Below are positions 30,937 through 54,530 of a stretch of DNA of 64,000 nucleotides, in pieces. This DNA is from Octopus vulgaris (lineage: Eukaryota). Each line of letters begins with the position of its first letter. Position 1 is the first letter of the stretch. Made by a program: the position numbers and the translations under genes. Below the pieces are notes generated by a model that saw only the letters and a program-made list of their open reading frames with translations, was not told the DNA's origin and did not search any database. The stretch spans positions 27,714,001-27,778,000 of the forward strand of contig OX597835.1 in assembly GCA_951406725.2 (NCBI GenBank), in the 5' to 3' direction.

Positions 30937-30945
30937 CTTCATAAC
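30937..30945 (-). CDS. 9-nt micro-exon GTTATGAAG, (G)YE
   Basis: ctaatgac branch region, long polypyrimidine tract, ctacag| acceptor and consensus AAG|gtaagt donor. Symmetric phase 1. Confidence 0.8.
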
Positions 30946-32949
30946 CTGTAGAAAAATAAAAGAAAAAAAATAGTCATTAGAAAAGGTTAAAAGATGTATT
31001 TTATATAATACTTGACATCAATGATATTACAGATATTTTTTTTTAAACTCAAACTGGAAAAATTTTTTTATATTTTCATTTATGTACTCATTATCAGTAA
31101 AGCTTGTGTGATAATGATAAAAATAATATTCATGATAAAATGATAAATGATATTAATGATAAAAATAATGATGATGATGATGTGCTACGACCAAATCCTA
31201 GAGGGAGTTATTGAGAATGAAGATTGCAAAATCCTGTGGGATGCAAAAGGATGAAGGATAAACTGGACTTCAGCAGAATTTGAACTCGGAATGTAAAGAT
31301 GGATGAAATACCGCTAAGCATTTCACCCGGTGTGCTAACATTTCTGCCAGTTTACCGCTTTATTTAGAGAGAATTTTTAAATAATCTTTTAATGTTGACT
31401 AAAGATTAGTTAAAATATATTTTTTAATATTCTACAAACTCAATATATACATTATACTATTAATCTATTATTATTTACTACATAACACATCACTTCCCAA
31501 CCAAAGTACCTCAGAACCTAAGGGTTTCTGTGAGAAATTGTGATCATCATCTCATCATCATCATCGTTTAACGTCCGCTTTCCATGCTGGTATGGGTTGG
31601 ACAGTTTCACTGAGGACTGGTGAGCCAGAGGCTGCACCAGGCTCAATCTGATCTGGCAAAGTCTCTACAGCTGGATGCCATTCCTAATGCCAACCACCCC
31701 AAGAGTGTAGTGGTTGCTTGGCTAATTATAATCAAGCACATTGAGTTATATTTCTGTGTGTTTAATTCTATATTGTTTTTATTATTTGTCTTTTACTTGT
31801 TTCAGTTACTTAGCTGTGGCCATGCTGGGGCACTGCTTCGTGGAGCTCTAGTCAAACAGATCAACTTCAATATTTATTACTAAGTCAAGTATGCAAACCA
31901 ACAAGTGGTGGACTAGTGGGAAAGGTGGGGAGGGATATTTTCAAGCCAGATACTTCACCCAAATGTTTGTAATAGAGCTGACTCCACTAGAGGCACCAAG
32001 AGTGCCATGAGGTAGTATTAAGGTGGGCTACACATTAAATCTACTGGCTCAAAGCTCTTGACAGAAAGGGGAGAAATTCCAAGAAATTAGGAATAAATTT
32101 CATATAGAAAAGTTAATTTCAATACTTAAGCGATTGGGGGTGGGTGGGGTTTCGTCTTTCAGAAAAATGAGTTCTTTTGATGATTCAAAGAAAACATTTA
32201 ATAGAAAAGAAATGCAGTATGTGTGTTCGTGTGGCCAGAAGTTAGCTTCTCAATCACATGGTTCCGGGTTCAGTCCCACACTGTGGCACCTTGGGCAAGT
32301 GTCTTATACTGTAGCCCTGGACCAACCAAAGCTTTGTGAGCAGATTTGGTAAAAAGAAGCCCTTTATGTGTGTGTGTATGTGAGAGAGAGAGTGTCTGTC
32401 ACCTAGAACTGTTTGACAACTGGTGTTGGTGTGTTTACATCCCTGTAACTTAGTACCTCAGCTAAAATAACAGCGATACAATAAGTTTAAAAACATAAGT
32501 ACTGGGGTTGATTTGTTCACTTAAACCCTTCAAGTGTTGCCCCATTATGGCCGCTGTCCAATGACTAAAACAAGTAAAAGATAGAAGATACTGCTTGAAC
32601 TAAAACAAAACATAAAAAAAAGGGAAAAAAACCTACAAATGCTACCAACTGGTTGGTTTATGCTAGTTTTATAATGAAATCAAAATCAATATTAGATGGA
32701 GATTAAGAAAATATATTGGCATCGTGATGAAATATTAAATTGAAATACATTGTCGATATAAAAAAATTTTTTCATTTTTCATTCTTATTAAAATTCAAGA
32801 TGTTTTCATAGAAATTAGCATAATTCCTTGTTTGAAAGCCACAGACTAGATGTTTTGAAAAAACAAAAATATCAGCCGAGGTCATGCAGAGATAAAAATC
32901 AATGACCAAATCTATCAATTTTTTAAAAAGAAACTACAGAACACTGAAT

Positions 32950-32986
<37 letters not shown>

Positions 32987-33361
32987 GTAGTAGTAATAAT
33001 CCTTTCTACTAAAAGTGCAATGCCTGAAATTTTGGGGGAGGGGACTAGTCGATAACATTAATCCCAGTATTTCATTGGTAGTTAATTTACTGACCCCAAA
33101 AGGATGAAAGGCAAAGTTGACCTTGGCAGAATTTGAACTCAGAATGTAAAAGATGATTTCATCCAGCAATGCTAATGATTCTGCCAGCTCACTGCCTTTT
33201 AATAACAGTGGTAATCCTTTCTACTAAAGGCACAAGGCCTGAAATTTTGCAAGGTGAGGGCTTTTTAATTACATTGACCCAAGTATTCAACTGGTACTTA
33301 TTTTATTGACCCCACAAAAGAATAAAAGGCAAAGTCTTGCCTGGGGGAATTTGAACACAGA

Positions 33362-33480
33362 ATGTATGAACATAAACCAGAAGGTATCATTGAGAATAAT
33401 GTGGATAAGATCTTATGGGATTTTGCAATCCAGTGTAACTCAGAGATTGATGATCAGAGACCAGACATTATTCTTTTCTA
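33362..33480 (+). mobile_element. R4/Dong-like endonuclease-region fragment
   Basis: YEHKPEGIIENNVDKILWDFAIQCNSEIDDQRPDII contains ILWD and RPD motifs. Related piece at 31190-31245. Confidence 0.65.
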
Positions 33481-34194
33481 CTCTAAGCACAAGACCTGGA
33501 ATTCTTGGGGAGGGGGACAAACAGTACAACCCCCCCCCCCCCGATAAACACAATATCTTAAATCAACAACCTCATGATATTGCATACTGTGCAATGTCTA
33601 TAATGATGATGACGATCCTTTCTATTATTATTATTATTATTATTATTTCTTACTTAGGTACTAGGCCATCAATTTTGAGGGGAAGGTAAATAGTTCATAT
33701 CATCAACCCCAATGCTTGACTGGTACTTTATTTTATGACATATTCTTTTCTACTCTAGGCACAAGGACCGAAATTTTGGGGGAGGGGGAGGCTGTCGATT
33801 AGATCGACCCCAGTGCATAACTGGTACTTAATTTATCAACCCCGAAAGGATGAAAGGCAAAGTTGACCTTGGCGGAATTTGAACTCACAACGTAATGACA
33901 GACGCAATACGGCTACGCATTTCGCCCGGCGTGCTAACATTTCTGCCAGATTGCCGCCTGAAAAGTCTGATGCTCTACCGACTGAGCTATGCGGGCTTAC
34001 GACTTATGGCTTATGACATATTGGAGTCAAAATACTTGAATAACCTCTTGCCTCAAAACCGATGGCCTTTTTTTTTCCTTAAATCAGAAATCAATTTTAC
34101 TATTATTGTTATAATTATTACACTAACAATTAGTATTTAGTTCTGCTGAAAAGTGCTATTAACCACAAGTTTTAGTAATAATAATAATAATAAG

Positions 34195-34632
34195 ATTTAT
34201 TTGTCAGATTTGCTTGTCAGTTGTTTGACCGTAAACAGTTGAACATGTCCCTTAGTGGCTGACGATATGTGCATCTCTGATCATAAGCAGAAGTAGTGGG
34301 GAAGCATCATAGCCGTGTGTTGAAAGGAATTCTTAAAGGTTTAGATAATTCACCCTTGGAAACATGGATGTTTCATTCAACATCCTTAAACAATCCTTAT
34401 TCAGGGACCTTTTGAGTGGAATGGGCTACTCAACCAGAAGAAAATTCTAACTGGGTCCAAACTGCAAGGTCATGCGCTGTTTATCTTTATATGAGATCAG
34501 CATGTCGCGCACATATGGTTGTGATGCATGTGCCTGGTGTACCCTTATCAGACGGGTAGTCATGATGGGTATACTGGGCTTCATATATCTTACCCCAATG
34601 TCATTTTGATGACATTCACTGCTCTCTCACTC
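34195..34632 (+). mobile_element. retroposon 3' fragment ending CACTGCTCTCTCACTC(AAT)n
   Basis: Homologs at 53755-54120, 53437-53556 and 8940-9348 (-). Flanked by (AAT)n. Confidence 0.65.
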
Positions 34633-34809
34633 AATAATAATAATAATAATAATAATAATGATAATAATAATAGTAATAGTAATAAAACGTAGACTATATC
34701 CAGAAAGTTATAGTATAATAAAAATGCATTTATAAAAAAAAGAATTATAAAACATTAATTATTTAATTAACAAAATTAATGTCGTAGAATATAAATAAAT
34801 TATAAATAC

Positions 34810-34824
34810 CTTCCCAGTTCCTGG
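34810..34824 (-). CDS. 15-nt micro-exon CCAGGAACTGGGAAG, (A)RNWE
   Basis: About 35-nt polypyrimidine tract, cctcag| acceptor and GAAG|gtattt donor. Paralog of 44839-44853. Confidence 0.75.
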
Positions 34825-52557: not shown

Positions 52558-52605
<48 letters not shown>

Positions 52606-53200
52606 CATTCAGTAAGTAGGGAAAACTAAATGAGAACAAATTTATCTCTAATATACACATGGAGCAAAAATGAAGAATTTCTGCCTGAATCTTCGACTTG
52701 AAGAATTACCATTTCAATACACTGATTAGTGTCAGATGTAGGTGAACAGAACCCCTAGATTATTCCACTTGAGAGGTCCTTTCCTTTCAGGATGGAGCCC
52801 AAGCTGGACAATATGATTATGTGACATAAATCATATGCTTTAGTCTGGGGGCCCTTTAGATTTTGGGACCATAGTTTCAGTATGCTAAGCCTATAGTTAC
52901 TGCCAAGCTATAGTTACTGCTAAGCTATAGGCACTTAAGACTATAGGCATTGGCAGCGGTATATTTAAACTAGTGTCCTCATCCTGATTGTTATAGTTCC
53001 ATTTCTTTCAGACAATAGGAGGAAAAGAATCTACCAAAACCTGGAGATTTAATAAAGGATTCTGGTTTCAGATTCCATGAAGAATATTGAATATAATAGA
53101 AGGCACCAGAAGAAAATTGGAATACAGAAATGCAATGACTGAAATGTGACCAATAGACCAAGATGAGACTCTAGATGAATAATAATAAAACTACTGAATG

Positions 53201-53285
<85 letters not shown>

Positions 53286-53556
53286 TAATAATGGTTTCAT
53301 TTATTTGTCACAAGCGCGAAGGATGAAGGGGATAATACAAAGACAGACATAAAGTGTAGAGGTTTACATGTAATGAAATAATAAATGAAAAGTGAAAGAA
53401 AGAAAGTATACACAGTATACACTGAAAAAGAAGGGACATGGTTGTGATGCATGTGCTTGGTGCACCCTTATCAGATGGGCAGTCATGATGGGTATATTGG
53501 TCTTCGTATAATTGTACACCAGTGTCACTTTGATGGCATGTACTGCTCTCTATTTC

Positions 53557-53600
<44 letters not shown>

Positions 53601-54120
53601 TGATGATGATTTCAAATTTTGGAACAAGGCCAGCAGTTTTGGGGAAGAGGTTAAGTCAACTACATCAACCATGGTGTTCAACTGGTGCTTATTTTATCAA
53701 CTCTGGAAGGATAAAAAGCAAAGTTGGCCTTGGCATAATAATAACAATAATAATAAATGCTCTGATGCAGTACCAGGCAATGGTTCTCATGGCTTCTGAT
53801 CTTAATTGATTGCAAGTGTTATCATGTACATTGATTTGTCTTGGTGTAAAAGATGGGCTACAGCAAATGTTCTGCTCAATACCACAGATTTGCTTGTCAG
53901 TTGCTTGACCTTAATCAATTGAGCAAGAAAATTCTAACAAGGCCCTGCCTGTAAGGTCATGTGCTGTATATCTTGATATGAGATCAGCATATCACACATA
54001 TATGGTTGTGATGCATGTGCCTAGTGTTCCCTTATCTGACGGGTAGTCATGATGGGTATACTGGGCTTCGTATATTTTTATCCCAGTGTCACTTTGATGG
54101 CAAGCACTACTCTCTCACTC

Positions 54121-54167
<47 letters not shown>

Positions 54168-54518
54168 TAATAATAATATTAAAAATAATAATAATAATAA
54201 AGGATTTCCATATACCAATTTTATACTATAGAATTTCTGTATGCAATAGAGGGAATAGACTACCAAAATAAGTTGAAAATGTAGCAACAAAAAAAGACTA
54301 ACAAACAATAACACTTTCTAAAGCTAAATATACTGTAACATGGAAATTTAAAAGAAATTCTGTTTTTTTAAAAAATAAAGCAATGCAAGGCAATAGAGGC
54401 AAAGCAGATACTGAGTATGTGAGCAGAGAAGAGAAAGAAAAAAAAAAACAGAAAGAAGGAAGACAACAAGATTAAGCTTGGATTTATGAAGAATATAAAT
54501 ATATAAATTTATAAATAC

Positions 54519-54530
54519 CTTCCCAATCAG
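54519..54530 (-). CDS. 12-nt micro-exon CTGATTGGGAAG, (A)DWE
   Basis: Long polypyrimidine tract whose first downstream AG is tcgaaag|. Donor GAAG|gtatttata is shared with the ARNWE exons. Confidence 0.7.

Follow-up and report, generated by a model that had tools for sequence, protein, structure and literature searches.

The unc-13 gene of Octopus vulgaris carries six micro-exons within a single intron of 63.5 kb. They were found in and beside a 64,000-nt stretch of genomic DNA (assembly GCA_951406725.2, contig OX597835.1, positions 27,714,001 to 27,778,000; hereafter the window), four of them inside the window and two upstream of its end, all on the minus strand. The host gene is unc-13/Munc13, which encodes a synaptic vesicle-priming protein, and alignment with known structures places the array between the C2A domain and the helix through which this protein binds RIM. 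Judged from sequence, the chance is about even that the exons form a tether of variable length, which would tune the predicted grip on RIM and hence transmitter release.

Six micro-exons in one intron of unc-13

The identity of the gene is seen in the 124-nt exon upstream of the array, which matches the Munc13-1 C2A structures PDB 2cjs_A (E 8.5e-9) and 2cjt_A, and in the octopus Unc13 records, whose first ~880–900 residues map exon by exon over ~400 kb of the minus strand, including the C1 and C2B region in the O. bimaculoides protein UVH70864.1 (P0242, 1,668 residues). The Unc13 cluster representative carries PF00168, PF00130 and PF06292. A weak Pfam match of the downstream exon to Mst1_SARAH (E 0.04, below the cut-off) was dropped after the gene had been identified. 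The other records used here are the O. vulgaris gene models CAI9738990.1 and CAI9738991.1 (P0236 and P0238) and a cuttlefish-like transcript protein (P0001), which shares 99% identity with a Sepia pharaonis record along 256 aa and is 83% identical to P0242. RNA contigs came from four of 24 listed runs, belonging to four studies, under two organism labels. Window-extended coordinates continue the window numbering past either end, with values above 64000 upstream on the gene strand and negative values downstream. The exons and the introns' in-window part are:

Window-extended 85829-85706, minus strand: upstream exon, 124 nt, phase 0 to 1, encoding the end of C2A and terminating in RFELPY
Window-extended 74286-74278, minus strand: m1, GYE, 9 nt, GATATGAAG; scan of flank, contigs of 4/4 runs, P0242, P0001
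Window-extended 67347-67339, minus strand: m2, DWE, 9 nt, ACTGGGAAG; contigs of 4/4 runs, P0242, P0001, P0236/P0238
54531-64000, minus strand: in-window part of the m2-m3 intron (12,808 nt in full)
54519-54530, minus strand: m3, ADWE, 12 nt; scan, contigs of 4/4 runs, P0242
44839-44853, minus strand: m4, ARNWE, 15 nt; scan, P0242
34810-34824, minus strand: m5, ARNWE, 15 nt; scan, P0242
30937-30945, minus strand: m6, GYE, 9 nt, GTTATGAAG; scan, P0242, gene models P0236 and P0238
22104-22183, minus strand: downstream exon, 80 nt, phase 1 to 0, encoding the helix after C2A, which aligns with the Munc13-1 RIM-binding helix when the relative P0001 is aligned to 2cjs_A

The original prediction, made from the letters of the window, described m3 to m6 as minus-strand segments preceded by a pyrimidine tract and AG, ending in GAAG|GT and consisting of multiples of 3 nt in phase 1. 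All of these features are present and each segment is open in phase 1, but its list of four was incomplete, as m1 and m2 lie beyond the window end, where the same scan found them on fetched flanks. All six members have AG/GT borders, 3n length and phase 1-1, and their sizes (9, 9, 12, 15, 15 and 9 nt) fall in the micro-exon range of 3–27 nt. Between m4 and m5 there are two differences, both synonymous, while m2 is identical to the final 9 nt of m5. From the upstream to the downstream exon the introns measure 11419, 6930, 12808, 9665, 10014, 3864 and 8753 nt. AG-free zones of 35–232 nt and strong pyrimidine tracts were found at all six acceptors and CTAAY at two of the six, constitutive acceptors not being compared.

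The six segments are confirmed as genuine exons, exceeding what chance would give. When the window was scanned with strict splice-site patterns, listing candidates with an open frame or of at most 60 nt, the minus strand gave only m3 to m6 and one 247-nt read-through sharing its donor with one of them. Extended over all 63.5 kb of the intron, this strict scan gave exactly six sense candidates of ≤27 nt, which are the six members, and one antisense candidate; 30 local shuffles of the intron gave 0–2 candidates each, and none of the 30 gave the combination of 3n length with a GAAG end. Across the 2.8-Gb genome the 15-mer TGGGAAG|GTATTTAT was matched 15 times (control 6); four of these matches fall in the array intron, all on one strand, where chance would give ~1e-4. 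A looser scan of the intron returned 29 candidates, and only the six array members occur in any protein record examined. One 27-nt candidate at window-extended 82575 is skipped by the contigs of all four runs. A search of the intron at ≤1 mismatch gave no further, decayed copies that retain a pyrimidine tract and acceptor.

Inclusion of the first three members can be read directly from RNA. None of the 24 runs is on record as RNA, a status assigned to them by guess, but the contigs are joined at AG/GT over three introns of 7–13 kb, which only spliced RNA would give. In each of the four runs the contig covers nothing but the upstream exon up to its donor, beyond which 30 identical letters follow (m1, m2, m3, one C), the single C after m3 being the first base of m4 or of m5. 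The O. bimaculoides protein contains all six exons, RFELPYGYEDWEADWEARNWEARNWEGYEDLPE, and the eight genomic exons of O. vulgaris translate exactly to its residues 93-183. The segments do join exon 22183-22104 in phase 1 as had been proposed. Other forms are seen among the remaining records: the O. vulgaris gene models hold m2 and m6 only (2/6 members), P0001 has a GYE-DWE insert, and an Argonauta hians model has no array exon. It had also been suggested that the exons might be used in a mutually exclusive manner, which is refuted by the tandem m1-m2-m3 in 4/4 runs (at least three exons together) and by the six in one O. bimaculoides record; the maximum of 16 in-frame forms rises to 64 with the two further members. 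The expectation that gene prediction would overlook such exons agrees with the O. vulgaris gene model capturing two of six (one model examined). Free combination of the exons within one species is possible.

The proposal of serial duplication is supported for part of the array. The four exons ending in WE (m2 to m5) share TGGGAAG|GTATTTAT and are very likely duplicates of one another, but m1 and m6 have other donors. The donor GTATTTAT occurs in none of 30 longer unc-13 exons and GTATTT in one of the 30, and among the four WE exons 12–18 of the next 23 intron bases are alike, compared with 3–14 in other pairs (pairs involving the VVK and VMK exons described below excluded). In this AT-rich DNA the shared donor and intron bases give modest support for a duplication that would have included the exon plus its donor.

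A predicted tether in the RIM clamp

When P0001 was aligned to 2cjs_A (158 residues, E 1.2e-52), its six-residue insert fell immediately after L131, which by this alignment puts the array after the residue equivalent to Munc13-1 L131, in the linker between C2A and the RIM-binding helix. In Munc13-1 this linker is extended, L131 being its only residue that packs; C2A and the helix contact the RIM zinc finger at opposite ends, and there is a clash between the helix and Rab3A (PMC1472246). Binding of RIM frees Unc13 from an inhibitory C2A homodimer as well as from a contact between C2A and MUN, and in worms it determines release probability (PMC6389284; 10.1101/2024.01.24.577102). In the octopus genome a RIM-type zinc-finger exon was recovered (PF22601, E 9e-18); an intron divides this zinc finger in octopus, and the recovered exon is without the helix-binding part. 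Two RIM-type zinc-finger exons were seen in the genome, at C3:65849326-65849454 and C7:70565457-70565546, and two further FYVE-type exons from a PF02318 search were not RIM-like.

Inclusion of the exons would insert a spacer of 0–23 residues between C2A and helix. The full insert (69 nt) has 8 acidic, 2 basic and 6 aromatic residues, with a net charge of up to -6. All six members end in an aromatic residue followed by Glu, so that any last exon puts an aromatic residue right before the helix and C2A retains its original Tyr; both features would be kept in every form and only the spacer length would differ. A longer spacer is expected to loosen the coupling of the two RIM-binding halves, the clamp most likely being weakened or re-timed; it would also alter how Unc13 is divided between homodimer and RIM complex, and might relieve the clash between helix and Rab3. 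Inclusion would probably be regulated by neuron type, as with the worm unc-13 micro-exon.

Several observations weigh against a regulated tether of this kind. As the four runs all have the same high-inclusion start, the gene model is the one source for skipping in O. vulgaris, and this 2/6 model is possibly the product of mis-mapping, given the identity of m2 with the end of m5. In Argonauta, annotation may have overlooked the exons and so produced the zero form, and the gene behind P0001 may have just two of them. The RNA runs carry no tissue label; m1 to m3 were seen directly in their contigs, and the inclusion of m4 to m6 was seen through protein records (P0242, and for m6 also P0236/P0238). 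A UGC motif near the 3' splice site is a feature of eMIC/SRRM4-type micro-exons (PMC8797185), and TGC occurs between positions -60 and -4 of none of the six acceptors; m2 has TGCAG directly at the acceptor. Finally, the linker is a loop with few crystal contacts and might accept insertions with little consequence.

Alternatively, the six exons may be included as one lineage-specific block, always or in neurons, which would give a fixed lengthening or an on/off switch and no graded code. This explanation is regarded as somewhat unlikely. It agrees with m1-m2-m3 plus a fourth exon in all four runs, with the sole full-length O. bimaculoides record examined having all six, and with the partial forms being gene models or belonging to another lineage. 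It does not, however, fit the O. vulgaris model with m2 and m6 alone, and each exon is frame-neutral by itself. Furthermore, gene models of other molluscs have an optional insert at this junction, and at a second micro-exon site of the gene O. sinensis models show four combinations.

Acidic-Trp repeats resemble the W-acidic motifs of kinesin light chain, and [W/Y]-E-D-L is compatible with an Atg8/LC3-interacting motif or with a YxxPhi sorting signal. The exons could thus create a new docking motif of one of these types instead of a tether, an explanation held to be improbable. The aromatic-Glu ending of 6/6 exons gives [W/Y]-E-D-L where the last exon meets the next exon, and Y-x-x-V is likewise made by most of the unrelated DVVA-type inserts in other molluscs, the skipped form Y-D-L-P being unfit. 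Such short motifs nevertheless often arise by chance, the shared GAAG ending may reflect needs of splicing rather than of the protein, and the Mytilus insert lacks a Tyr. A reading in which a permissive loop tolerates the exons as nearly neutral duplicates is already weakened and very unlikely: exon duplication elsewhere in unc-13 (two SCSN exons, two SPV..QDY segments) and the unrelated sequences inserted at the junction in other lineages would suit it, but O. vulgaris and O. bimaculoides agree in all 23 insert residues with only synonymous differences between m4 and m5, GYE-DWE also occurs in the cuttlefish-like transcript, and the intron holds no decayed copies with tract and acceptor at the ≤1-mismatch level.

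Optional inserts at this junction are older than the octopus exons, and most animals have no insert there. Among 94 mostly molluscan and brachiopod rows a DVVA-type insert of four residues was found in 53, no insert in 29, the WE/YE type in 4 and another type in 2, with 6 unparsed, and models with and without the DVVA insert exist within Haliotis asinina, H. cracherodii, Patella caerulea and Mizuhopecten. The WE/YE-type insert is present in 4/421 gathered proteins, all cephalopod or cephalopod-like, and a 50%-cluster search gave no additional one. A strict-pattern search of 264 kb in octopus gave no DVVA-type exon. Insect and spider Unc13 records (P0120, P0181, P0183, P0206, P0153 and P0160 are examples) have optional-looking inserts of other kinds at the junction, longer and containing DPPTGW in insects and of 1–3 residues in spiders. 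Since several lineages insert optional-looking segments at the C2A-helix junction, the intron looks like a recurrent hot spot of alternative splicing. The array may have originated in an intron which already bears an optional exon in other protostomes, through serial copying of an exon together with its donor.

Other exons of unc-13 and a second micro-exon cluster

At the calmodulin (CaM)-C1 site, where worms and flies have a single VLK exon, octopus unc-13 has a cluster of four exons at ~27.57–27.61 Mb of the contig. Four combinations of these exons occur in O. sinensis models, and five in O. sinensis and O. bimaculoides records together; Lingula has zero, one or two VMQ units at this site. 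Further exons of the gene lie in the window. These features are, in window-extended coordinates where negative:

17291-17336, minus strand: next unc-13 exon after the helix exon, 46 nt, phase 0 to 1
10294-10407, minus strand: symmetric phase-1 unc-13 exon, 114 nt, in Argonauta and cuttlefish (Sepia) records, absent from P0236 and P0242
-108003..-108032, minus strand: IKPPKQSICS exon
-109331..-109357, minus strand: KFNTIFCIG exon
-109911..-109919, minus strand: VVK exon
-142234..-142242, minus strand: VMK exon

The VMK exon, GTCATGAAG, is one base apart from m6, GTTATGAAG, and VMK, VVK and the four WE exons all end in GAAG|GTATTTAT. In a pattern search for 9-nt exons with this end, 4 genome-wide matches were obtained (control 5), 3 of them in unc-13. 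GTATTTA as a general micro-exon donor gave 2 matches genome-wide vs 7 in the control, and GTAAGT gave 2 vs 12, so the controls were uninformative. The members nearest to VMK in exon sequence, m1 and m6, use other donors, which counts against a common origin with VMK. A wider proposal, in which coleoids would possess a six-step ruler of up to 64 linker forms setting release probability neuron by neuron, built at one optional splice site of the RIM clamp and seeded by frame-shifted copies of the ancient VLK/VMK exon, is considered unlikely.

The 114-nt exon at 10294-10407 is likely to be optional. Two small look-alike exons, SCSNEEGDYN and SCSNDEADDYN, are located on the minus strand at window-extended ~-25358..-25387 and ~-45859..-45891; they are found in octopod records and not in Sepia records, and the flanking exons repeat an SPV..RQSTQDY segment too. 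A second copy of the 3' part of a large exon (-12448..-12723) lies at window-extended -12851..-12928 on the minus strand, with one amino-acid change and its own AG/GT, and represents a local duplication or an assembly artefact. Relative to P0001, P0242 has a Gly-Gly insert in a C2A loop (residues 18-19) at an exon junction, possibly from a 6-nt micro-exon; no convincing candidate for its source was found within 66 kb upstream. Related tandem repeat arrays with units of 66–139 bp are present in the introns at window 18478-18947, 26824-27345 and 55864-56205, and a dispersed repeat in the flanks imitates a 25-nt exon on both strands.

Comparison with known systems

The six-exon sequence is already public (UVH70864.1), and no description of it as an exon array was found, subscription papers, splicing-database tables and supplements aside. 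In PMC9282427, which discusses Aplysia unc13 isoforms from alternative starts and gives the octopus unc13 accession as TBD, the terms 'microexon' and 'insert' are absent from the text and 'microexon' and 'ARNWE' from three supplement files, and a 2026 bioRxiv study including O. bimaculoides leaves unc-13 unmentioned in its main text. The former paper also reports that the DLG scaffold family is not expanded in octopus compared with Aplysia, and suggests alternative transcripts as a source of diversity. The array gives this suggestion a concrete, testable case at a structurally defined synaptic interface, the Munc13/RIM switch being central to how vesicle priming, release probability and plasticity are controlled in the presynapse. 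Its linker forms make up a natural length series in which the dependence of a two-part RIM clamp on its tether can be studied, and the array indicates that micro-exons can multiply by duplication across introns of 4–13 kb.

Closest in gene is the VLK exon of C. elegans and Drosophila, a 9-nt micro-exon of unc-13 between the CaM site and C1 whose neuron-type-specific inclusion tunes synaptic transmission (PMC12287369). Like the octopus array it preserves the frame, but it is single and located at CaM-C1, whereas the array is six-fold, in phase 1 and at the equivalent of residue 131; the octopus counterpart of VLK is VMK (together with VVK, both phase 0), ~170 kb downstream of m6. In mouse Unc13b a 6-nt, SRRM4-dependent neural micro-exon between exons 13 and 14 has a measurable phenotype (PMC4387716). 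This exon is likewise tiny, in frame and in a member of the Munc13 family, but it is single, not duplicated, and at the exon 13/14 site; vertebrate Unc13 rows have no short insert at the C2A linker. The DVVA insert of gastropods and bivalves occupies the same junction as the octopus array and is similarly present or absent among isoform models, but it is one unit, aliphatic and without sequence likeness to the octopus exons, and is probably a single exon.

A structure that would allow frame-neutral skipping is also shared with the schistosome micro-exon genes (MEGs), in which symmetric, skippable micro-exons make up as much as 75% of the coding sequence of small secreted proteins (PMC4015677); the octopus array, unlike these, contributes 69 nt or 23 residues to a conserved intracellular protein of 1,668 residues. 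A run of short alternative exons of the same phase in a variable region, expanded in particular lineages, is found in troponin T as in the octopus array. The P exons of avian troponin T encode a repeated short motif. Exons 4–8 of fast skeletal troponin T (PMC2447309) and the seven avian P exons of the Tx segment (PMC5062619) belong, however, to the terminal region of a muscle protein, while the octopus exons are separated by introns of 3.9–12.8 kb and lie inside a two-part synaptic binding clamp.

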